A stretch of DNA of 64,000 nucleotides from assembly GCA_050115495.1 (NCBI GenBank), contig JASFQK010000001.1, positions 1-64,000 of the forward strand. The letters run 5' to 3'. The notes under the pieces are model-generated. The model had not been told where the DNA came from. It saw only the letters and a program-made list of their open reading frames with translations, and did no database searches. The stretch's first letter is position 1. The number at the start of each line of letters is the position of its first letter. Both the position numbers and the translations under genes were made by a program. Positions 738 through 12,611 of this stretch are shown piece by piece. This DNA is from Phycisphaerae bacterium (GTDB lineage: Bacteria; Planctomycetota; Phycisphaerae; UBA1845; Fen-1342).

Positions 738-2993
738 ATGACAGACTTCTGGGGACACGTCGCGCCATCACGCGAGGGGAAGGAGTGGGAGCCGCTGGCA
801 GAACACCTACGGCTTGCCGCCGACGGCAACAAGTACTTCGCCGGGGCCGCCGGGTTTGCTGAGGTGTTTGGGGCCGGCGATTGGGGGCGACTGATCGGCT
901 TGTGGCACGATATCGGCAAGTACTCGACGGAGTTTCAGGAGTACCTGCGGCAGGCGAACGACGTCGAGGCCCACCTGGAGACTCGGCAGGGCAAGGTGGA
1001 TCACTCGTCCGCCGGCGCGCAGCATGCTGCCGCGGAGTATCGGGGGGTAACTGGCCAGTTGCTCGCATACTGCATCGCTGGTCACCATGGGGGTTTGCCG
1101 GATAACGTCGATCCGGGGGGCGGTGAATCGGGTCTGGCGAGCCGGTTGAAGAAGGCCATCTGCGACTACTCGGCGACACCGCAGGAGATACTGAAGCAGC
1201 CGAAGCTGCACGCGCCGGTGTTCAAGCCAGAAGATGAAGGCAAGTCCCTCTCCGCCTTCCAGCTTTCGGTGTTCTGCCGGATGTTGTACTCGTGTCTGGT
1301 GGACGCCGACTTCCTGGCCACAGAGGCATTCATGCAGCCGGAGCAGGCGGCGGAGCGCGTGCAGGCGCCGCCGGCGATGGCAGAGTTGCTGACACGGCTC
1401 GACGCTCACCTGGAGCGGCTGGCGGCGTCGGCGGCGAAGGACTCGGCCGTCAACCGCGCGCGGGTGGACGTTCTGGCGCAATGCCGGGAGAAGGCGCGGT
1501 GTGGGCCCGGGCTGTACTCGCTGACCGTGCCCACGGGCGGCGGCAAGACGCTCTCTTCGCTGGCGTTCGCCCTGCATCACGCCATCGCGCACGATTTGCG
1601 CCGCGTCATCTACGCGATCCCGTTCACCAGCATCATCGAGCAGAACGCGAAGGTGTTCCGCGGGGCGCTCGCCGGCGACGGGCCAGACGTGGTGCTGGAG
1701 CACCACAGCAACCTCGAATCGGACAAGGAAACACGCTGGGGACGGCTGGCCGCCGAGAACTGGGACGCGCCGATTGTCGTCACGACGAACGTGCAGCTCT
1801 TCGAGTCGCTGTTCGCCAGCAAGCCGTCGCGCTGCCGCAAGCTTCATCACATCGCCCGCAGCGTCATCATCCTGGACGAGTGTCAGACGCTGCCGGTCAC
1901 GTTGCTGGCCCCGACGCTACGCATGCTGGACGAACTGCGCCGCAACTACGGGTGTACCGTCGTGCTCTGCTCGGCGACACAGCCGGCGGTGGAGCAGCGT
2001 GAGGGGTTCAGGATCGGCCTGGCGGGCGTCCGTGAGATCATCGCCGATCCGCCGGCACTGTCTGCGTCGCTCCAGCGAGTGGACGTGCAACGCGTCGGCA
2101 AGCTCGATAACACGGCCGTCGTCGAGCGGCTCCGCCAGCACGAGCGCGTCTTGTGCGTGGTGAACACGCGTCGCCACGCCCTGGAGCTCTTCACAGCGCT
2201 GTGCGAGGCCACCGATTCTGCGGACGGCGTCTTTCACCTCAGCACGCGGATGTGCGCCGCGCATCGCACCGATGTGCTCGCGCGGATTCGCGAGCGGCTG
2301 GATCCGGCCCGGCCGCAGCCCTGCCGGGTAATCAGCACCCAGTTGATCGAGGCCGGCGTGGACATCGACTTCCCGGTCGTCTTCCGGGCGATGACGGGGC
2401 TGGACTCGCTCGCCCAGGCCGCCGGGCGGTGCAACCGGGAGGGGCGCCTGCCGCGCGGCGACGTCTTCGTATTTGACACGGACGTCGATCCGCGGGGTGA
2501 CCTGCGGTTGCGGCGGCAGTTGGGCAGCGAGGTCGCCCCCGAGCACGACGACCTGCTCGGGCTGGAAGCCATCGAGCACTACTTCCGCCTGCTGTACTGG
2601 ACGCGGCAGGACGAGTGGGATCGGGAGAAGATCCTCGGAGACTTCGGGTTCGGCGGAGGCGGGCTCCATTTCCAGTTCCGTGAGGCAGCGCGGAAGTACC
2701 GACTCATCCCGGATGGCCAGCAGCCGGTGATCGTGCCCTACGGATCGATCGGCGAGAAGCTCGTCGCGGAGCTCCGGGCCATGATCGAGGATCCCGGCCG
2801 CAACTTCGACCGGCGGGCGCAGCGTCACGTCGTGGCGCTCTACCAGTGGGAGTTCGACCAACTGCGCCAGAATCAGGCGATTGCCCAATACCACGAGCGG
2901 TTCTGGGTGCTGGAGAATAACGCGGCCTACGACGAGCGGGTCGGTTTGAGAACTGACGTATCGGGTTTCACTCCCGAAGTGCTGTGCCAATAG
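738..2993 (+). CDS. cas3: CRISPR-associated HD nuclease/helicase Cas3
   Basis: N-terminal HD domain (HDIGK, HHGGL, LVDAD), Walker A PTGGGKT, DECQ, SAT, STQLIEAGVDID, QAAGRCNREG. Confidence 0.97.
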   Translation: MTDFWGHVAPSREGKEWEPLAEHLRLAADGNKYFAGAAGFAEVFGAGDWGRLIGLWHDIGKYSTEFQEYLRQANDVEAHLETRQGKVDHSSAGAQHAAAEYRGVTGQLLAYCIAGHHGGLPDNVDPGGGESGLASRLKKAICDYSATPQEILKQPKLHAPVFKPEDEGKSLSAFQLSVFCRMLYSCLVDADFLATEAFMQPEQAAERVQAPPAMAELLTRLDAHLERLAASAAKDSAVNRARVDVLAQCREKARCGPGLYSLTVPTGGGKTLSSLAFALHHAIAHDLRRVIYAIPFTSIIEQNAKVFRGALAGDGPDVVLEHHSNLESDKETRWGRLAAENWDAPIVVTTNVQLFESLFASKPSRCRKLHHIARSVIILDECQTLPVTLLAPTLRMLDELRRNYGCTVVLCSATQPAVEQREGFRIGLAGVREIIADPPALSASLQRVDVQRVGKLDNTAVVERLRQHERVLCVVNTRRHALELFTALCEATDSADGVFHLSTRMCAAHRTDVLARIRERLDPARPQPCRVISTQLIEAGVDIDFPVVFRAMTGLDSLAQAAGRCNREGRLPRGDVFVFDTDVDPRGDLRLRRQLGSEVAPEHDDLLGLEAIEHYFRLLYWTRQDEWDREKILGDFGFGGGGLHFQFREAARKYRLIPDGQQPVIVPYGSIGEKLVAELRAMIEDPGRNFDRRAQRHVVALYQWEFDQLRQNQAIAQYHERFWVLENNAAYDERVGLRTDVSGFTPEVLCQ

Positions 2994-3024
2994 AAAAAGA
3001 CGGGCCGGACTGTACGTCCGGCCC
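2994..3024 (-). terminator. Intrinsic terminator on minus strand (3' end of mini-guide RNA)
   Basis: Minus strand reads GGGCCGGAC-GTACA-GTCCGGCCC followed by GTCTTTTT; the U-tract is only on the minus strand. Confidence 0.8.
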
Positions 3025-3083
3025 TTGTCACAACCCCAGCAAAGTATGTTTCAATCCGCTGCGAACAAACGACTTGCGCGCAG
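2994..3083 (-). ncRNA. CRISPR-like regulatory RNA (crlRNA/CreR-like mini-guide)
   Basis: Minus strand: hairpin CTGCG-C-GCAAG-TCG-TTTGT-T-CGCAG (3083-3059), exact last 11 nt of the array repeat CGGATTGAAAC (3058-3048), guide ATACTTTGCTGGGGTTGTGACAA (3047-3025), then terminator. The guide matches 3147-3162. Confidence 0.85.
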
Positions 3084-3122
3084 AAACCAACGAAAGGAAG
3101 CTGAGAATTATCGGTGGACAAC

Positions 3123-3151
3123 TTGACCACCGACATCCCACATTTTATACT
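3123..3151 (+). promoter_or_regulatory. Sigma70 promoter of the cas5-cas8c-cas7 operon (target of the mini-guide)
   Basis: TTGACC (3123-3128), 17 nt, TATACT (3146-3151); near consensus in a GC-rich genome. Confidence 0.85.
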
Positions 3152-3323
3152 ATGCTGTGGTTAAACATTCAACTCAAGCGGAAACCGATCATGGCACTCT
3201 ACTCGCCACAACTCGCACGCCCGCCGCCACGGCGGACAACCAAAAGCCCGGCCCCCGGCGGCAATTGCCGCCGGGGGACCATTCTCCCTTGTCCGTGTGC
3301 TAACCGACCAAGGAGAACACACC

Positions 3324-4007
3324 GTGAATTATAACGTAAGGCTCCGAGTTCGGGGGCCGGATGCATGTTTCACACGTCCTGAGATGAAGGTCGAGCGTGT
3401 CTCGTATGACGCGATGACACCCTCGGCTGCACGCGGCGTTCTGGAGGCGATCTACTGGAAGCCGCAGATCTGCTGGGTGGTCCAGCGGATCCACGTTCTC
3501 AACGAGATTCGCTACACCAACCTGCGCCGCAACGAGATCGGCGCCAAGGTGGTCGTCGCCGGCGGCTCTGGCGCTGGCCGAGCCATGAAGGCCGGGCGGG
3601 GACGGCTCGGCCTGTTCGTCGAGGAAGAACGCCAGCAGCGGGCCGCCACGATGCTCCGCGACGTGGACTACCTCGTCGAGGCACGGTTCGAGATCGTGAG
3701 CGGTGACGAACCGCCGGCGAAGCATTACGAGATGTTCCGCCGGCGGGCTGAGAAGGGGCAGTGCTTCCACCATCCCTACCTCGGCTGTCGGGAATGCGCC
3801 TGTGATTTCGCCTGGCACGAGGGCGAGCCGCCGACCGGGTTCTACTCCGCCGGCCAGCCGGGTGCTGAGCCGGCGGAGCGCGACCTGGGGTTCATGCTCC
3901 ACGACATCGACTTCGACAACGACATGACGCCGCGGTTCTTCCGCGCCGTCATGCGGCGGGGCGTGATCGATGTTCCGCCGTTTGAGGCGGCGGAGGTGCA
4001 CCGATGA
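3324..4007 (+). CDS. cas5: Type I-C Cas5 (Cas5c/Cas5d), crRNA-processing endoribonuclease
   Basis: [50 protein letters not shown] start at 3324 after SD AAGGAG. Confidence 0.96.
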
Positions 4008-5779
4008 TCCTGCAAAGACTGGTCGAGTACTACGACCGCCTGGAGGCCGAACCGGAGAGCGACATCGCGCAGTTCGGGTTCAGCCGGCAGAAGATCAGTT
4101 TCGTGGTCGTGCTGAAGGCCGACGGCTCGCTGGTGGAGTTTCAGGATGCCCGCCGGGAAGAGAACGGACGAGCGATCGCCCAGAAACTGGTTGTACCGGG
4201 GTTGGCGAAGTCCTCTGGTTCGGGCATCAACCCGTGCTTTCTCTGGGACAATGCCCAGTACATGCTCGGCTTCAAGGCAGACGACCCGAAGCCGGAGCGT
4301 ACGAAGAAGGCGTTCGAGGCCTTTCGCGATCGGCACACGGGCCTCGAAGAGGAGATCGCCGACGAGGCGTTCTCGGCCGTCTGCCAGTTCTTGCGGACCT
4401 GGAACCCCGACGAGGTGGCCGCCGACGCGAAGCTGGCGGAGATCGCCAGTTCGTTCGGCATCTTCCGCATCGCCGGCCAGGTGGAGTACGTCCACGACCG
4501 CCCGAAGGTCCGCGCCTACTGGCTCGGACAGTTGGACGGTGCAGATGCCGACGCCCCGCGGGTCCCGTCGCTGATCAGCGGTGAGGTGCAGCCGATCGCC
4601 CAGTTGCACAAGCCGAAGATCAAGGGCGTCCGGGGTGCGCAGAGTTCGGGTGCGACGTTGGTCTCGTTCAACGCCGATGCCTACGAGTCGTATGCCAAAG
4701 AACAGAGTCTAAACGCCCCCGTGGGTGTCGCCGACGCGTTCAAGTACTGCACGGCGCTTAACCGTCTGACGGCGGCGCGCGAGCGGCAGGTGCATCTGGC
4801 CGACACGACCGTCGTCTTCTGGTCCGAACGGCCGACGGCCCTGGAAGACGAGTGCTTCGGCATGTTTGAGGTCGATCGAGCAGAAGATCCGGAGGCAGTC
4901 GAGCGGCTGAAGAACTTCTTCGCACGCTTACGTCGGGCCGCCGACGGCGCCGCGTTCGAAGATGGCGACGTGCCATTCTACGTCCTCGGCCTGTCGCCGA
5001 ACGCGGCACGTGTTTCGGTGCGGTTCTGGCTGGCGGGCACGGTGCAGCAGTTCGCCGCGCGGCTGGGGCGGCATCTGGCGGATCTGGAGCTCGCCGGCGC
5101 ACCGCCGGACATGCCACCGATCTCGCTACAGCGCATCATCGATCAGACCGCTCGCGAGCGTGACGACATCCAGCCGCTGCTCGGTGGCGCCGTGCTGGAG
5201 GCCGTCCTGTCCGGCGGGCCGTATCCGGTGTCGCTGGCTGCGGCGGTGCTGCGTCGGCTGCGGGCCGACGGTCAGACGGGCGGCATCAACGGGCACATTC
5301 GCGCCGCCATTCTCAAGGCATATCTGGTTCGCAAGCTGAGGCTCAGGAACCAACAGGAGACCATTGGCATGTCGCTCGATACCGCCTGTCCCCACACGGC
5401 CTATCACCTGGGGCGTCTGTTCGCCGTGTTGGAAAAGACGCAGGAAGAGGCGCTGGGTCGCGATCTGAATGTGACGATCAAGGACCGTTACTTCAGCTCT
5501 GCGTCCGCCAACCCGGTGGCGGCCTTCCCTCGCCTGCTGCGGCTTCACGCACACCACCTCGACAAGCTCGGTGCCGACAAGCGGGGGCTGAAGGTGATAC
5601 GCGAGAAGCTCGTCCAGGAAATCTGCGACCACGTCAACGCCGCGGCGGGCTTCCCGGCCCACCTGCCCCTCGACGAGCAGGGGCTCTTCTTCATCGGCTA
5701 CTACCATCAGCGTCAGGTGTTGTTCACATCCAACAAGACCGAGAGCGAGGCGTCCGCCGTCACCAACAGGGAGGACTAG
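4004..5779 (+). CDS. cas8c: Type I-C large subunit Cas8c (Csd1)
   Basis: [77 protein letters not shown] overlap with cas5. Confidence 0.96.
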
Positions 5780-5782
5780 TCC

Positions 5783-6682
5783 ATGAGTTCCAACAGCAAT
5801 TCGATCGAGAACCGCTACGACATCGTTTACCTCTTCGACATCACCGATGGCAACCCGAACGGCGATCCGGACGCCGGCAACCTGCCGCGAATCGACCCGG
5901 AGACCGGGCAGGGCCTGGTCACGGACGTGTGCCTGAAGCGGAAGATCCGCAACTACGTCGGGCTGCGGTATGGCGAGCAGCCGCCGCACGAGATCTACGT
6001 GAAGGAACGGGCCATCCTCAACAGCCAGCACGAGCGGGCCTACCAGGCCGTCGGCGAGAAGCCCGAGAAGCGCAAGATGCCCAAGGACGAGAAGAAGGCC
6101 CGCGAGATCACAGCGTGGATGTGCGGCAACTTCTTCGACATCCGCACGTTCGGCGCGGTGATGAGCACCGACGTCAACTGCGGGCAGGTGCGCGGCCCGG
6201 TCCAGTTCAGCTTCGCCCGCAGCCTCGATCCGGTCGTTTCCGCCGAACACGCGGTGACGCGGTGCGCCGTGACCACCGAGGCGGAGGCGGAGAAGCAGCA
6301 GGGCGACAACCGCACGATGGGCCGCAAGTTCACGATTCCCTACGGGCTGTACCGCGTGCACGCCTTCGTGAACCCGCACCTGGCGGCGCAGACCGGCTTC
6401 TCGGGCGACGATCTGGAGCTGTTCAAGGAGGCGCTCGGCCAGATGTTCGAGCACGACAAGTCCGCCGCCCGCGCGAACATGCGTCCGGTGCGCTGCATCG
6501 CCTTCAAGCACGACAGCAAGCTGGGCAACGCCCGGGCCGATCAGCTCTTCGCCCGCGTGCACGTCGGGTTGAAGCCGGAGCTGGCCGAGCAGAAGCGCCC
6601 GCCGCGCAGCTTCGCTGACTACACGGTGAACGTGGATGAAAGCGATCTGCCGCAGGGCGTGACGGTCGAGCACTGGATCTGA
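5783..6682 (+). CDS. cas7: Type I-C Cas7 (Csd2)
   Basis: [51 protein letters not shown]. Confidence 0.97.
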
Positions 6683-6762
6683 AGCCGCGTGACCGGCTCG
6701 GCCGCGGGGAGATGCTTCAGTATGCGCATGCCCGTGGCCGGCCGGCCGATGGGGTAACGGAC

Positions 6763-7497
6763 ATGTTCTCCGAAGACGAACTGCTGCCGATCTCAGCGTT
6801 GCAGCATCTGTTGTTCTGCGAGCGGCAGTGTGCGTTGATTCACATCGAGCGTCTGTGGGCGGAGAACCGGCTGACCGTCGAGGGTCGGCACCTGCATGAG
6901 AAGGCGCATGGCGGCCGGGGCGAGCGGCGTGACGGGGCGCAGATTCTGCGCGGACTGCCCCTGCGCTCGCTGCGTCTCGGCCTGGCCGGCGTGGCGGATG
7001 TGGTGGAGCTTCACCCAGCCGCCGCCCGCGACGGGCCAACACCGGCGACCGCCCAACCCGCCGACGTCGCCGCGCCGGCGGGAGCGGCGGCCCCGCCCGG
7101 AACGCCGTTTCCGGTCGAGTACAAACGTGGTCGGCCGAAGTCCAACGACTGCGATCGCATCCAGCTCTGCGCCCAGGCCTTGTGCCTGGAAGAAATGCTC
7201 GGCGTCGCCGTGCCGGCGGGAGCGCTCTTCTACGGGCGTACCCGCCGGCGGCAGGACGTCCTGTTCGACGCCGACCTGCGCAGCCTAACGGAGCAGGCGG
7301 CCGCGCGGCTTCACGAGCTGATCGCTGCCGGTGTCACGCCGGTCGTGCCGCCTCAGCGAAAGTGCCGCAACTGCTCACTCGTGCACCAGTGCCTGCCCCA
7401 GGCCGGCGGTCGTCGGTCAGTCCAGGCGTACATGATGCGGCGACTACGGGAGGGCATGGAGGTGAGCCAAGCCGATCCGGGAGGTGCAGATGCTTGA
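6763..7497 (+). CDS. cas4: CRISPR-associated RecB-like nuclease Cas4
   Basis: ISALQHLLFCERQCAL, ADVVE, PVEYKRG, QLCAQALCLEEM, CRNCSLVHQC Fe-S cysteines; start placed at ATG 6763. Confidence 0.95.
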   Translation: MFSEDELLPISALQHLLFCERQCALIHIERLWAENRLTVEGRHLHEKAHGGRGERRDGAQILRGLPLRSLRLGLAGVADVVELHPAAARDGPTPATAQPADVAAPAGAAAPPGTPFPVEYKRGRPKSNDCDRIQLCAQALCLEEMLGVAVPAGALFYGRTRRRQDVLFDADLRSLTEQAAARLHELIAAGVTPVVPPQRKCRNCSLVHQCLPQAGGRRSVQAYMMRRLREGMEVSQADPGGADA

Positions 7498-8632
7498 GTT
7501 GATCTACCACGATTTCGCTGACCTGAAAGGCCTGTCTCGCATCGACGCCGCCGTTCGCAAGATTGTCGCCAGGAAGGTTGATATCGCGTGCCCATATCTG
7601 GGTCCTGCATACGTGGAAGACGTACTTCGCGGTGCTTCGTCGTTCCGGTTGGTCACAGACATCGACGCGTGCTTTGCCGATCTGCGCAAGGCCGACCGCC
7701 GGGCACTCCTGAACTGGATGGAGCAACACTGCGCGTCCATCCGCCACTTCACACAGTTGCACGCCAAGACGCTGATTGGGGCGAACCAAGCCCTGGTTGG
7801 ATCAGCCAATCTGACCGAGACGGGCGTGAGCAAACGAGCAGAGATGGTTGTCCGTATCCGGGATACGCCGATCGTGCAGGAGGAGCTTGCCCGCTGGTTC
7901 GAGCAGTTGTGGACGAACTCGTCGCCTATAGACGCCGATCAACTCCGCCGTGGCTTGGCGAGTCTGCCTGATCGACGCGCCACCCGGCGGAACGAAGCCG
8001 GCGTTCCTCTTCTCGCGCAGCGCTCGCCGGTCGAGTTCAAGACACGCATCGGCGGCAGGGCGACCCCCAGTGCCAAGAAACGTCGCAAGTCTCCGGAGTT
8101 CGACGAGCCGGCGTTGATCGCCAAGCTCTCCAAGTTCACAGACCGCGCCCGCGTCGAGTTCTTCTTCGACTGGGCCCAGGAGGTGTACGCCGCAGCAGAG
8201 CATCTGCCCGTCCAGCCGACGCTCTTGCTTACCCTGCCCAACAAAGGTGTCTTGACGCTTCAGATCTGCAATCGGTACGCCGTGACAGTCAAGCGCCGCG
8301 ATGTCAGCGACGGCTCCGGTTCGTTCATGTATCCCGCGCAGCAACGCGAGATTCTCGAACGAGATCCACCTCCCTGGCTGGTGAGGATTACCGATTTCCA
8401 ACGGCCACCGCGGGAGCCGCCGCGCCCCATCCCGCTGTATATCCGATTCCGCTTCCCGCTCGGCGACCGCGACCGGAGCACGATTCAACGGAGGTGGCTT
8501 GAGGCGGTCAAGAGCGAGTTCACACGGGAGCAACCCGCCGCGCCGACCGCAATACACCAGCCTCTGCTGAAACGAATGACACTCGAACCCGAATACCGCC
8601 TCAAGATCCTCGATCAGGTCTTCAGCAGGTAA
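7490..8632 (+). CDS. PLD-family (HKD-variant) nuclease-like domain protein with unknown C-terminal domain
   Basis: IACPY, LHAKTLIG, LVGSANLT, GVSKRAEM, WFEQLW; SD GGAGG at 7480; overlaps the cas4 stop. Confidence 0.8.
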   Translation: MLELIYHDFADLKGLSRIDAAVRKIVARKVDIACPYLGPAYVEDVLRGASSFRLVTDIDACFADLRKADRRALLNWMEQHCASIRHFTQLHAKTLIGANQALVGSANLTETGVSKRAEMVVRIRDTPIVQEELARWFEQLWTNSSPIDADQLRRGLASLPDRRATRRNEAGVPLLAQRSPVEFKTRIGGRATPSAKKRRKSPEFDEPALIAKLSKFTDRARVEFFFDWAQEVYAAAEHLPVQPTLLLTLPNKGVLTLQICNRYAVTVKRRDVSDGSGSFMYPAQQREILERDPPPWLVRITDFQRPPREPPRPIPLYIRFRFPLGDRDRSTIQRRWLEAVKSEFTREQPAAPTAIHQPLLKRMTLEPEYRLKILDQVFSR

Positions 8633-8637
8633 TCGCC

Positions 8638-9669
8638 ATGAAGCAACACCTCAACACGCTCTACGTGACGACCCACGGGGCCTACCTGGCCAAGGACGGC
8701 GAAGCGGTGGCCGTGCGCGTCGACGGCGAATGCCGCCTGCGCGTGCCACTGCTCAACCTGGGCGGCGTCGTGTGCTTCGGCGGCGTCGGGGCCAGCCCGC
8801 CACTTATGGCCGCCTGCGCCAAAGCGGGCGTGGCCCTGTCATTCCTTACATCCAGCGGACGCTTCCTGGCCCGCGTCTCCGGCTTCACCCCCGGTAACGT
8901 GCTGCTGCGCCGTGAGCAGTATCGCCAGGCCGACGACGAACCGGCCGCCCTGGCCATCGCCAGGAATTCCGTCTTGGCCAAGATCGCCAACTCGCGGGCG
9001 GTGCTGCAGCGTGGCGCGCGGGATCGCCCCGATGCGCCCGGTAGCGACACGCTACGGGCCGCGGCGGACTATCTGACGCAGGCGCTGCACGACGTGGAGC
9101 ACACGACGTCGCTGGACCAACTGCGCGGGCTGGAGGGAGATGCGTCGCGGGTGTACTTCGGGACCTTCAACGGCCTTATCACGCGTCCGGACGAGTCGTT
9201 CACCTTCCGCGGTCGCAGCCGCCGGCCGCCGCTGGACAACGTCAATGCGCTGCTCTCGTTCCTGTACGCCATTCTGACGCATGATGCGCGGTCGGCCTGC
9301 GAGGCGACGGGGCTCGATCCGGCGGTGGGCTTCCTGCACCGCGATCGGCCGGGCCGGCCGGGGCTGGCCCTCGACCTCATCGAGGAATTCCGCGCGTACC
9401 TCGCCGACCGCGTGGCCCTGTCGCTGATCAACCGACAGCAGGTCCGAGCGGCGGGCTTCGTCCAGGGCGAGACCGGCGGCGTCACCATGGACGACGAGAC
9501 GCGCAAGACCGTGCTGGTGACCTATCAGAAACGCAAGCAGGACGTCGTCGAACACCCGTTCCTCAAAGAGAAGACGACCGTCGGCCTGCTCGTGCACCTG
9601 CAAGCGCGGCTGCTGGCCCGCTACCTGCGCGGCGAACTGGACGCCTACCCGGCGTTAATCATGAAGTGA
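8638..9669 (+). CDS. cas1: Type I-C Cas1 integrase
   Basis: MKQHLNTLYVTT, GNVLLRREQY, LRGLEG, RRPPLDNVNALLSFLY, GFLHRDRPGR, LDLIEEFR. Confidence 0.97.
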   Translation: MKQHLNTLYVTTHGAYLAKDGEAVAVRVDGECRLRVPLLNLGGVVCFGGVGASPPLMAACAKAGVALSFLTSSGRFLARVSGFTPGNVLLRREQYRQADDEPAALAIARNSVLAKIANSRAVLQRGARDRPDAPGSDTLRAAADYLTQALHDVEHTTSLDQLRGLEGDASRVYFGTFNGLITRPDESFTFRGRSRRPPLDNVNALLSFLYAILTHDARSACEATGLDPAVGFLHRDRPGRPGLALDLIEEFRAYLADRVALSLINRQQVRAAGFVQGETGGVTMDDETRKTVLVTYQKRKQDVVEHPFLKEKTTVGLLVHLQARLLARYLRGELDAYPALIMK

Positions 9670-9687: not shown

Positions 9688-9978
9688 ATGTTCGTGCTCG
9701 TGACCTACGACGTCTCAACAACGACCAAGGCGGGCAGGCGGCGGCTGCACCAAGTGGCCAAAGCGTGCCTGGATTTCGGGCAGCGCGCACAGAACTCGGT
9801 CTTCGAGTGCCAGGTCGATCCGGCACAGTTCGCCGAGCTCAAGCACCGCCTGCTTTCAATTTACGATGAAGAGGAGGACAGCATCCGGTTCTACCTGCTG
9901 GGTTCGAACTGGCGGGGCCGGGTCGAGCATTACGGGATCAAGCCGACGGTGGACCCGGATGGCCCGCTGCTGGTCTGA
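9688..9978 (+). CDS. cas2: Cas2
   Basis: VLVTYDV, RRRLHQVAKACLDFGQRAQNSVFEC, DSIRFYLLG. Confidence 0.97.
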   Translation: MFVLVTYDVSTTTKAGRRRLHQVAKACLDFGQRAQNSVFECQVDPAQFAELKHRLLSIYDEEEDSIRFYLLGSNWRGRVEHYGIKPTVDPDGPLLV

Positions 9979-10169: not shown

Positions 10170-12611
10170 GTCGCTCCCCCCGCGGGAGCGCGGATTGAAA
10201 CAGTGCCGGCCGACGACACGCGGGCTCGTGGCGAACGTCGCTCCCCCCGCGGGAGCGCGGATTGAAACAGCGCTCGCAACGTCCAGATCTTCGCGGCCGC
10301 AGCGTCGCTCCCCCCGCGGGAGCGCGGATTGAAACATCGTCGCGCTGGCGCGGCGGATCGGGGCGGCGATGTCGCTCCCCCCGCGGGAGCGCGGATTGAA
10401 ACGTCGTGGCGCAACGAGAGACAACCGACCGTAGTCCAGTCGCTCCCCCCGCGGGAGCGCGGATTGAAACGGCTCCGCCCCGACCAGCGTGCTGCCAGCC
10501 AGGTAGTCGCTCCCCCCGCGGGAGCGCGGATTGAAACCGGATCCACCGCGCACACCGCGCAATGCACGCCCGTCGCTCCCCCCGCGGGAGCGCGGATTGA
10601 AACCCGCTGCTGACCGGGGCGATGACGATCGCGCAGCGTCGCTCCCCCCGCGGGAGCGCGGATTGAAACCTGCCCGCTCGCCGGCGAGCGCAGCAGGGCA
10701 CCCGTCGCTCCCCCCGCGGGAGCGCGGATTGAAACCTCTCACTCAACATCAAAGCTCACCGTCCCTGCCGGTCGCTCCCCCCGCGGGAGCGCGGATTGAA
10801 ACTCCAACGCCCCGCGGCCCCGGGACGGCCTGGGGGGAGTCGCTCCCCCCGCGGGAGCGCGGATTGAAACCGGAGGTGGTGGAGCCGTGAGGAAAGAGAG
10901 CCGTCGTCGCTCCCCCCGCGGGAGCGCGGATTGAAACGGTAGCACCAGCGGGTGGAGCACGTACGACCCGAAGTCGCTCCCCCCGCGGGAGCGCGGATTG
11001 AAACACGGCGGTCGGGACGGAGGGCGACGGGTTCGTGCCGGGTCGCTCCCCCCGCGGGAGCGCGGATTGAAACGGCGACCACTCGATGCTGCCGGCGGCG
11101 CAGTTGAGCGTCGCTCCCCCCGCGGGAGCGCGGATTGAAACGAGCGCCGCGTCGGCGTGACGATCCAAACGGCGTCGTCGCTCCCCCCGCGGGAGCGCGG
11201 ATTGAAACCTGGATTTCTCGCAGATGGATGAGATGGCGGAATGGTCGCTCCCCCCGCGGGAGCGCGGATTGAAACTGCAGCAGCCGCAGCGGCCCGACCG
11301 CTCGCCACCCGTCGCTCCCCCCGCGGGAGCGCGGATTGAAACGGCCGGCCACCAGAAAGCGGATACTTGACGGCCTGTCGCTCCCCCCGCGGGAGCGCGG
11401 ATTGAAACTGCTCCCCCGCCGCAGATCTTTACGGCGGAAGAGGTCGCTCCCCCCGCGGGAGCGCGGATTGAAACTGCGCGCCGACGACTGGGGGGACCGA
11501 AGGGCCGGGTCGCTCCCCCCGCGGGAGCGCGGATTGAAACATTGCCGTGACGGATCGTTAGCGTTAGGAGCCGGAGGTCGCTCCCCCCGCGGGAGCGCGG
11601 ATTGAAACGCCGTACCGAACGCTGACGAGGGCGTGCCCGCCGAGGTCGCTCCCCCCGCGGGAGCGCGGATTGAAACGAAGAGGCGTACGACGTGTGCCTG
11701 GTGTCCAGCGTGGTCGCTCCCCCCGCGGGAGCGCGGATTGAAACACGTAAGGGCTCCTATGCCTCTGTGCTCATCTGGTCGCTCCCCCCGCGGGAGCGCG
11801 GATTGAAACATCATCGCGCTGGCGCGGCGGATCGGGGCGGCGCTGTCGCTCCCCCCGCGGGAGCGCGGATTGAAACTTCTGCGGGGCCATCTCATTCGGC
11901 GGGGAGACGGGTCGCTCCCCCCGCGGGAGCGCGGATTGAAACCAAGTAGGGCATACTGGCCGGGGAGCCGAGCCAGGTCGCTCCCCCCGCGGGAGCGCGG
12001 ATTGAAACGTCGTCGGCGTCCAGCCCGTCAGCCAAACGCACGGGTCGCTCCCCCCGCGGGAGCGCGGATTGAAACCTCGCGCAAGGTCCTCAGGCGCTCC
12101 CGCAGATCGTGTCGCTCCCCCCGCGGGAGCGCGGATTGAAACCTGCTCAAGGATCCCAGCACACCCGCCACCCGTCCGTCGCTCCCCCCGCGGGAGCGCG
12201 GATTGAAACACCCCGTACTCGTGCCGCCCGCCATCGAACCGCACGTCGCTCCCCCCGCGGGAGCGCGGATTGAAACCACGAGGACCAGGAAGGCCTCTAT
12301 CGCGCGGCCGGTCGCTCCCCCCGCGGGAGCGCGGATTGAAACGCTGTACGGCATCAGAGCCCATCCATCGTTTCGCGTCGCTCCCCCCGCGGGAGCGCGG
12401 ATTGAAACGCTGTACGGCATCAGAGCCCATCCATCGTTTCGCGTCGCTCCCCCCGCGGGAGCGCGGATTGAAACAAGGACCTGCACCGCGGCGTGCTGAT
12501 CGCCGTCGCGAGTCGCTCCCCCCGCGGGAGCGCGGATTGAAACATCTTGATGGCGTGAACTACAAAGAGACGTGCTGTGGTCGCTCCCCCCGCGGGAGCG
12601 CGGATTGAGGC
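10170..12611 (+). CRISPR. Type I-C CRISPR array, 37 repeats / 36 spacers (33-37 nt)
   Basis: 32-nt repeat GTCGCTCCCCCCGCGGGAGCGCGGATTGAAAC (stem CGCTCCC/GGGAGCG). The terminal repeat 12580-12611 is degenerate (ends TTGAGGC), supporting + orientation. Confidence 0.99.

Follow-up and report, generated by a model that had tools for sequence, protein, structure and literature searches.

Can Cascade, loaded with a guide RNA that does not come from the CRISPR array, act as the repressor of its own genes? The question is raised by the complete type I-C CRISPR-cas locus that opens a 64,000-nucleotide stretch of DNA from a Phycisphaerae bacterium (contig JASFQK010000001.1, positions 1 to 64,000; hereafter the window), where it was recognized from the list of open reading frames (ORFs), Pfam, and NCBIfam. 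The element in question lies on the minus strand of the 330-nt spacer between cas3, which ends at 2993, and cas5c, which starts at 3324. An earlier interpretation made from the letters alone (the sequence-only reading) had proposed that it encodes a hidden mini-guide RNA aimed at the promoter of cas5c, cas8c, and cas7. We consider it likely that the spacer holds a gene for a CreR-type RNA resembling a CRISPR RNA (crRNA), that is, a crRNA-like RNA (crlRNA) made from a solitary repeat unit (SRU), which would steer Cascade onto its own promoter without cleavage. Behind this view stand the sequence anatomy of the element, its uniqueness in the genome, and the recurrence of its design in other type I-C loci; from these we infer transcription, processing, binding, repression, and the absence of cleavage.

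Anatomy of the element in the cas3-cas5c spacer

The argument depends on the following features, including the protospacer-adjacent motif (PAM) that flanks the target. Positions are counted from the first base of the window.

3083-3059, minus strand: pseudo-repeat hairpin CTGCG...CGCAG, with a CUGCG/CGCAG outer stem, a 1x1 mismatch, a 4-bp inner stem, and a 5-nt loop
3058-3048, minus strand: 11-nt 5' handle CGGATTGAAAC (= CGGAUUGAAAC), identical to the 3' end of the array repeat
3047-3025, minus strand: spacer-like guide ATACTTTGCTGGGGTTGTGACAA, 23 nt, matching the target at positions 1-16, apart from 6 and 12, and not at positions 17-23
3024-2992, minus strand: intrinsic terminator of the putative guide RNA gene, a 9-bp stem-loop at 3024-3002 with 8 G-C pairs, then GTCTTTTTCT
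3144-3162, plus strand: target, made up of the PAM TTT (3144-3146) and a 16-nt protospacer-like match (3147-3162)
3123-3151, plus strand: predicted sigma-70-type promoter TTGACC-N17-TATACT of cas5c-cas8c-cas7, with 10 of 12 consensus matches
3172-3144, minus strand: candidate promoter of the guide gene, TTGAAT (3172-3167)-N17-TATAAA (3149-3144), picked out by eye
3324-6682, plus strand: cas5c-cas8c-cas7, the proposed regulated operon
10170-12611, plus strand: CRISPR array, with 36 identical 32-nt repeats GTCGCTCCCCCCGCGGGAGCGCGGATTGAAAC and a degenerate 37th repeat at its end

The sequence-only reading had put a hairpin, a handle, a guide, and a terminator one after the other on the minus strand, and all four are present there. 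It had counted 11 nt of identity to the array repeat. The identity in fact extends to 12 of 12 nt (GCGGATTGAAAC, 3059-3048), as it includes G3059, the last base of the hairpin. Across the assembly (5.97 Mb in 85 contigs, 67% G+C, approximately 92% complete), this 12-mer occurs 37 times, 36 times in the array and once here, while the reversed control sequence is found 0 times. When up to one mismatch is allowed, the 11-mer of the handle has 37 matches in the window, against 0.60 expected, and these are again the 36 array repeats and this one site. The hairpin formed by the array repeat has a 7-bp stem and a 5-nt loop, and the 11 nt of the handle come after it. In the pseudo-repeat, the hairpin has been almost wholly rewritten, yet the 12 nt at the cleavage site are untouched, and the hairpin terminates exactly where Cas5c is predicted to cut.

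The guide agrees with its target at 14 of 16 positions, with mismatches exactly at positions 6 and 12, which are the flipped positions. This pairing with 3147-3162, and the TTT in front of it, were as the sequence-only reading had described them. The gapped pattern ATACTNTGCTGNGG has only two sites in the whole assembly, namely the guide and the target. The pair was not listed by a seed-6 repeat search, because its longest exact run is 5 nt. The background that had been invoked is likewise borne out: an 11-nt handle produced by Cas5c, unpaired positions 6 and 12, and a TTC PAM are all reported for type I-C (10.1101/2024.12.27.630466).

A promoter scan recovered the TTGACC-N17-TATACT promoter and the overlap of its -10 box with the target, both of which had been claimed from the sequence. 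It is the only promoter-like site that the consensus scan found at 2900-3400 (1 found, 0.2 expected). Its -10 box, at 3146-3151 by the consensus prediction, is overlapped by the PAM and the target and lies 173 nt before cas5c. The surrounding DNA at 3084-3200 is 44% G+C, compared with 67% for the genome. The candidate promoter of the guide gene spans the target and stands face to face with the -10 box of cas5. It is absent from the output of the scan because its -10 hexamer ends in A, not T.

At the other end of the element, the T-run of the terminator (2998-2994) adjoins the stop codon of cas3 (2991-2993), and the last two bases of the tail overlap the stop. The T-run is on the guide strand; the cas3 (plus) strand has only TTGT after the terminator hairpin. 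This hairpin may double as the 3' repeat hairpin of a crRNA. We also considered whether the element is a mini-array. That reading is ruled out by the single copy of the handle and by the terminator hairpin after the guide, which is unrelated in sequence to the repeat; a second repeat is thus absent 3' of the guide. A scan of 2800-3400 against Rfam (E up to 10) returned only chance matches below threshold, including a 15-bit fragment of CRISPR-DR9 on the handle.

The design in other type I-C loci

The comparison drew on at least 594 Cas5c relatives, of which we took the best 80, including 1.2 kb of DNA upstream of each; with the window, they made 81 loci. Each ATTGAAA[CT] in the 1.3 kb upstream of cas5 was treated as the possible end of a handle, and the next 24 nt were matched against the same region from position 1 on, with every sixth base ignored. 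There were 22 such sites, distributed over 18 of the 81 loci. Eight of them, in seven loci, had a gapped match of 14-17 nt, and the remaining 14 had no such local match. Thus, 6 of the 80 other loci carry a pseudo-repeat ending in ATTGAAAC upstream of cas5, followed by a guide specific to the locus:

Window: this genome, PAM TTT
L003: Tautonia, PAM TTC
L005: Isosphaeraceae, PAM TTC
L015: Desulfobacteraceae, PAM TTC
L019: Kiritimatiellia, PAM TTC
L028: gammaproteobacterial metagenome-assembled genome, with two copies of the repeat unit, PAM TTC
L039: Roseovarius, PAM TTC

The guides of all seven loci are unrelated in sequence. All 7 loci have a mismatch at position 6, and 6 of the 7 have one at position 12. 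As a control, we asked how often pseudo-guides taken at every position have a 14-nt gapped match elsewhere in their region. This was the case for 319 of 211,526 (0.0015), and 165 of the 319 stem from the duplication in L028. Relative to this control rate, repeat-end motifs are associated with a local seed match next to a PAM approximately 200 times above background. At the level of sequence, such recurrence is guide/target covariation across independent loci.

The units resemble that of the window in other respects. In L003 and L019, a terminator-like hairpin directly follows the guide on the guide strand, as in the window, and in L019 a TTGACA-17-TAGATT promoter stands in front of the repeat unit. 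The units of L003, L005, and L019 also share the orientation seen here, on the strand opposite to cas5. In L015, the target lies over a TATAAT box. In L039 it abuts the -35 box of a TTGACA-16-TATGCT promoter directed at the repeat unit and cas5, and no cargo gene intervenes. Elsewhere cargo is usual, in that the target mostly precedes a small gene in front of cas5; only the window and L039 have no cargo. Because only 161 nt (3163-3323) part the target from cas5c, the window appears to have the design in "pure" form, with the Cascade operon itself as the regulated unit. Three loci from Neisseria and Eikenella (L064, L069, and L070) have a clear pseudo-repeat before cas5 and no target in the 1.2 kb upstream. 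For units of the Neisseria type, the literature places the targets further upstream, before cargo genes.

The genes behind the targets are varied. L019 has a Phd/YefM-like ORF and a PIN_3 gene (342-1201), L015 an NYN-domain gene (430-1050), and L028 a HicA-like gene (579-791). In L003 (778-1005) and L005 (724-975), we found homologous ORFs of 75 and 83 amino acids (36% identity, E = 2e-17) that share the motif DRLPYTS[ED]FD and belong to no Pfam family. Lying between the crlRNA target and cas5, these small ORFs are candidate CRISPR-supervised cargo of Isosphaerales-type loci. Between the targeted promoter and the repeat unit of L039 there is an ORF of 30 amino acids (1001-1093) with a leucine-rich hydrophobic core, MIKPPKEPLSWINLVEACLRLLLLLVGLFR. 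It resembles a small membrane peptide and may be a CRISPR-repressed toxin.

Proposed mechanism and known relatives

If the element works as we propose, the guide gene would be transcribed on the minus strand from upstream of 3083, away from cas5, and transcription would end at the terminator beside the cas3 stop. Cas5c would then cleave this transcript between 3059 and 3058, where the stem of the degenerate hairpin has its base. The product would consist of the 11-nt handle CGGAUUGAAAC, the 23-nt guide, and the 3' hairpin, and at approximately 65 nt with its U-tail it would be close in length to a normal crRNA of the array (11 + 35 + 21). The 3' hairpin would be approximately 12-14 nt closer to the handle than in such a crRNA, which suggests that the Cascade would be two Cas7 units shorter. 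The loaded complex (Cas5c, Cas8c, Cas7, and Cas11) would recognize the TTT PAM at 3144-3146, and guide positions 1-5, 7-11, and 13-16 would pair with the template strand of the cas5c-cas8c-cas7 promoter, across its -10 box and the region of the start. Bound in this way, Cascade would sit as a repressor over the -10 box and the start site, and probably also over the -10 box of the guide gene. As pairing stops after 16 nt, no full R-loop would form and Cas3 would not be licensed. When free Cascade falls, whether it is taken up by crRNAs of the array, the presumed source of competing crRNAs, or blocked by anti-CRISPRs, the promoter would open and more Cascade would be made.

The closest precedents are the SRUs of type I-C. 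Located between cas3 and cas5c, they were shown experimentally in 2024 to yield crlRNAs of 48-50 nt (10.1101/2024.12.27.630466). According to that preprint, an 11-nt handle remains after cleavage by Cas5c on the 3' side of the hairpin, the RNA carries a 3' hairpin, and 16 bp of pairing with a mismatch at position 6 (and 12) next to a TTC or TTA PAM represses the promoters of Nezha, Gabija, and other cargo in reporter assays. The element described here shares with these units, from Neisseria and others, the subtype, the intergenic position, the single repeat, the 11-nt handle, the short guide, and the 3' hairpin, as well as approximately 16 nt complementary to a promoter region, mismatches at 6 and 12, and a TTN PAM. 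Repression by Cascade that leaves the target uncut, as proposed here, is also the mode of action of those units. The layout differs. The published SRUs immediately precede cas5c, on the same strand as the cas genes, and have their targets next to the -35 box, before inserted cargo defense genes (Nezha, Gabija, "CRISIS"). Here, in contrast, the unit is on the opposite strand beside the cas3 stop, the target is the -10 box of the cas5c promoter, there is no cargo, and the unit has a true intrinsic terminator and a TTT PAM.

Autoregulation itself was reported in 2023 for CreR, where degenerate CRISPRs autorepress the Cas genes of types I-B, I-E, and V-A (10.1101/2023.03.10.532045); creA-like elements of types I-C, I-D, I-F, and I-U are noted in supplementary figure S7 of that study. 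Relief of CreR autorepression by anti-CRISPRs, which the sequence-only reading had invoked, is described there and in 10.1101/2024.10.29.618823. Our element is like CreR in being a putative gene for a degenerate CRISPR-derived RNA with partial pairing at its own cas promoter, and the control that we propose is of the kind known from CreR, which crRNAs or anti-CRISPRs relieve. The CreR experiments, however, concern types I-B, I-E, and V-A, and most CreR genes of type I are mini-arrays that have two pseudo-repeats, whereas there is one here. A single pseudo-repeat followed by a rho-independent terminator is known from the V-A CreR (10.1101/2024.10.29.618823), and the same source describes phage mimics aimed at type I-C loci.

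Shmakov et al. found a repeat-like sequence in 34% of 1206 type I-C loci and a mini-array in 7% (PMC10120712, Table 1). The features of their mini-arrays recur here: a repeat-like sequence in a long cas intergenic region, a seed beside the better-conserved repeat, transcription (predicted here) opposite to cas3, a sixth-position mismatch, a PAM-flanked target in the effector promoter, and a patchy distribution among close relatives. Their detailed account covers types I-E, I-F1, I-B, and I-D and gives only frequencies for I-C, and elements with one repeat would not count as mini-arrays. A further likeness is to CreTA, with its degenerate repeat, partly matching guide, and Cascade-mediated repression of a promoter (PMC9458426; 10.64898/2026.06.02.729485). 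Unlike CreTA, the locus has no convincing toxin gene after the target.

The sequence-only reading had implied that such a design was new. The mechanism, its type I-C form, and the combination of a single repeat with a hairpin or terminator have all been described before. From comparison of the sequences, it is well supported that the element is a new example of an already described switch, in which the layout varies and the principle does not. If it works as read, it would add a Planctomycetota-like, high-G+C example to the Cas autoregulatory guide RNAs. Its layout is a variant of the published type I-C cases: opposite strand, one decayed repeat, true terminator, no cargo, -10 target, and TTT PAM. 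The understanding of the mechanism is unchanged by this locus. Array finders miss such elements, yet CRISPR expression strength and the response to anti-CRISPRs are affected by them, and a screen for the handle motif followed by a gapped seed match near TTN could annotate them in bulk.

Competing explanations, the cas5c leader, and the surrounding locus

Several results weigh against autorepression by a guide RNA. The pseudo-repeat hairpin is much more degenerate than its counterparts in other loci, and far more so than the hairpin of the array repeat. Its folding energy is ordinary (z = -0.89), with 38 of 200 shuffled sequences folding equally well, and the minimum free energy fold of the pseudo-repeat region pairs most of the handle with upstream U-rich sequence. 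Because the hairpin folds like shuffled sequence and the handle is drawn into a longer helix, processing by Cas5c is not assured. The candidate promoter of the guide gene fell short of the criteria of the promoter scan. The cas5c promoter is itself a consensus match only; host promoters are uncharacterized. The PAM here is TTT, whereas the six comparison loci all have the canonical TTC. Searching this genome with its own 35 array spacers gave only short chance matches of up to 24 nt and none of full length, so the PAM preference of the system could not be derived from them. TTT is the second most efficient PAM of the type I-C system of Legionella (L. pneumophila; PMC5602111), and it ranks second in Xanthomonas albilineans and fourth in Bacillus halodurans type I-C (10.1101/2021.10.18.464778).

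Conservation by descent is also missing from the sequences that we searched. The sequence-only reading had looked to orthologous cas3-cas5 spacers for guide/target covariation, and no orthologue of the element was found in which to follow it. In L001, the closest Cas5c relative among the 80 (78% identity), cas3 abuts cas5 with no spacer. Five loci from relatives' genomes have no guide adjacent to TTGAAA[CT] with a local target. In a DNA search of 61 genomes (this genome, G000, and 60 relatives), only cas coding sequence matched outside G000. A pattern scan of metagenomes gave two loci, both ordinary array spacers that share the first 11 nt by chance. A scan of viral sequences for a phage mimic gave one locus, with no GG before ATTGAAAC and no obvious repeat-like hairpin upstream, which we judged by eye to be a chance match. 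The patchy distribution agrees with that described for such elements (PMC10120712).

Some of the alternatives involve the cas5c leader, which has the following features:

3163-3323, plus strand: cas5c leader, 161 nt between the target and cas5c, with no cargo gene
3252-3277: perfect palindrome CCCCCGGCGGCAATTGCCGCCGGGGG, 26 nt, G+C-rich, very stable, and unique in the 5.97-Mb assembly
3282-3317, plus strand: leader hairpin, in which UUCUCCCUU pairs with the cas5 Shine-Dalgarno sequence AAGGAGAA (UUCUCCCUUG with CAAGGAGAA)

By burying the Shine-Dalgarno sequence of cas5c, the hairpin at 3282-3317 suggests that cas5c is controlled at the level of translation. A 47-codon frame with an ATG start (3191-3334), in which three consecutive proline codons are followed by two arginine codons, crosses this hairpin and overlaps the start of cas5, and its translation could in principle open the hairpin. 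The palindrome at 3252-3277 is possibly an RNA-stabilizing hairpin or an operator for a protein; the plus strand has no T-run after it. Given these features, the guide-silenced promoter may control not just the Cascade genes but also, for example, a stalling RNA of the CreT kind or, within the leader, a second switch that acts on translation. The locus would then be a type I-C CreTA-like guard or a two-layer homeostat with transcriptional and translational control, and a single Cascade bound across the two opposed -10 boxes would silence the guide gene along with the cas operon. We think it improbable that this is so.

The element might instead be an inert relic, its 12-nt repeat end left behind by an array rearrangement, its second hairpin simply the terminator of cas3, and the similarity of guide to target without function. 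The statistically unremarkable hairpin before the handle is in keeping with this, as is the absence of the element from the nearest Cas5c relative and from the five relatives' loci, which indicates that it is not conserved by descent, and stand-alone repeat-like sequences are common in type I-C (the 34% of PMC10120712). However, a relic leaves unexplained why a 14/16 match that is unique in the genome has its mismatches at 6 and 12 and a TTN PAM, and why it lies on the -10 box, 100 nt from the guide. Nor does it account for the T-run on the guide strand, or for the six further loci that have this arrangement with guides of unrelated sequence, where the background rate is 0.0015. We regard a relic as unlikely. 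Nor do we see the element simply as a decoy, in which the RNA would be loaded into Cascade but would serve to sequester Cas proteins or have some other target, the promoter match being incidental. Solitary repeat RNAs (Racrs) that merely sequester Cas proteins do exist (PMC10651486), short seeds allow other targets, a caveat also raised by Shmakov et al. (PMC10120712), and with an assembly approximately 92% complete a target could be missing. Yet the assembly offers the gapped 14-nt seed a single target site, which is on the promoter of the effector operon and has a PAM. A pure decoy thus seems highly improbable.

A guard of the CreTA type would give the same guide another purpose. The guide would be a CreA antitoxin RNA, the silenced promoter would drive a CreT-like RNA toxin in the leader, and loss of Cascade would arrest the cell and not merely raise Cas levels. 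As described in 10.64898/2026.06.02.729485, CreT RNAs combine a Shine-Dalgarno sequence, a mini-ORF (with rare codons or two prolines), and a G+C-rich hairpin. The leader offers the ATG frame with its Pro-Pro-Pro-Arg-Arg codons and the genome-unique G+C-rich palindrome, and in other loci toxin-like cargo lies behind the target (PIN in L019, NYN in L015, and HicA in L028). But the frame at 3191-3334 has only GGAA, and no canonical Shine-Dalgarno sequence, before its ATG. Its 47 codons pass through the hairpin into cas5, instead of forming a mini-ORF that ends before the hairpin, and the proline codons come 10 codons in, not directly before a stop. The G+C content of its third codon positions (GC3) is 0.56, compared with 0.75-0.93 in the cas genes, it has no Pfam match, and open frames are expected by chance in DNA of 67% G+C. 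On this evidence a toxin guard is very unlikely. We therefore retain repression of the Cascade operon by its own complex as the best account of the element; the sequence and the other type I-C loci support it, and its function is something that the pattern of matches suggests.

The genes of the locus, with the ORF upstream of cas3, are as follows. All but the ORF at 36-599 were assigned from the ORF list, Pfam, and NCBIfam:

36-599: ORF of 187 amino acids upstream of cas3, with no match in Pfam or NCBIfam
738-2993, plus strand: cas3, stop codon at 2991-2993
3324-4007, plus strand: cas5c, with a GTG start behind AAGGAGAA
4004-5779, plus strand: cas8c
5783-6682, plus strand: cas7
6712-7497: cas4
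7484-8632: PLD-like ORF of 382 amino acids (Pfam, NCBIfam)
8638-9669: cas1
9688-9978: cas2

The spacers of the array that follows are 33-37 nt long. The PLD-like ORF sits between cas4 and cas1 and overlaps the end of cas4, an unusual feature for the adaptation module of a type I-C system. Its match is to PLDc_2 (E = 1e-9), a nuclease or phospholipase domain, and it has weak similarity, below threshold, to DpdK and to DrmC of DISARM.

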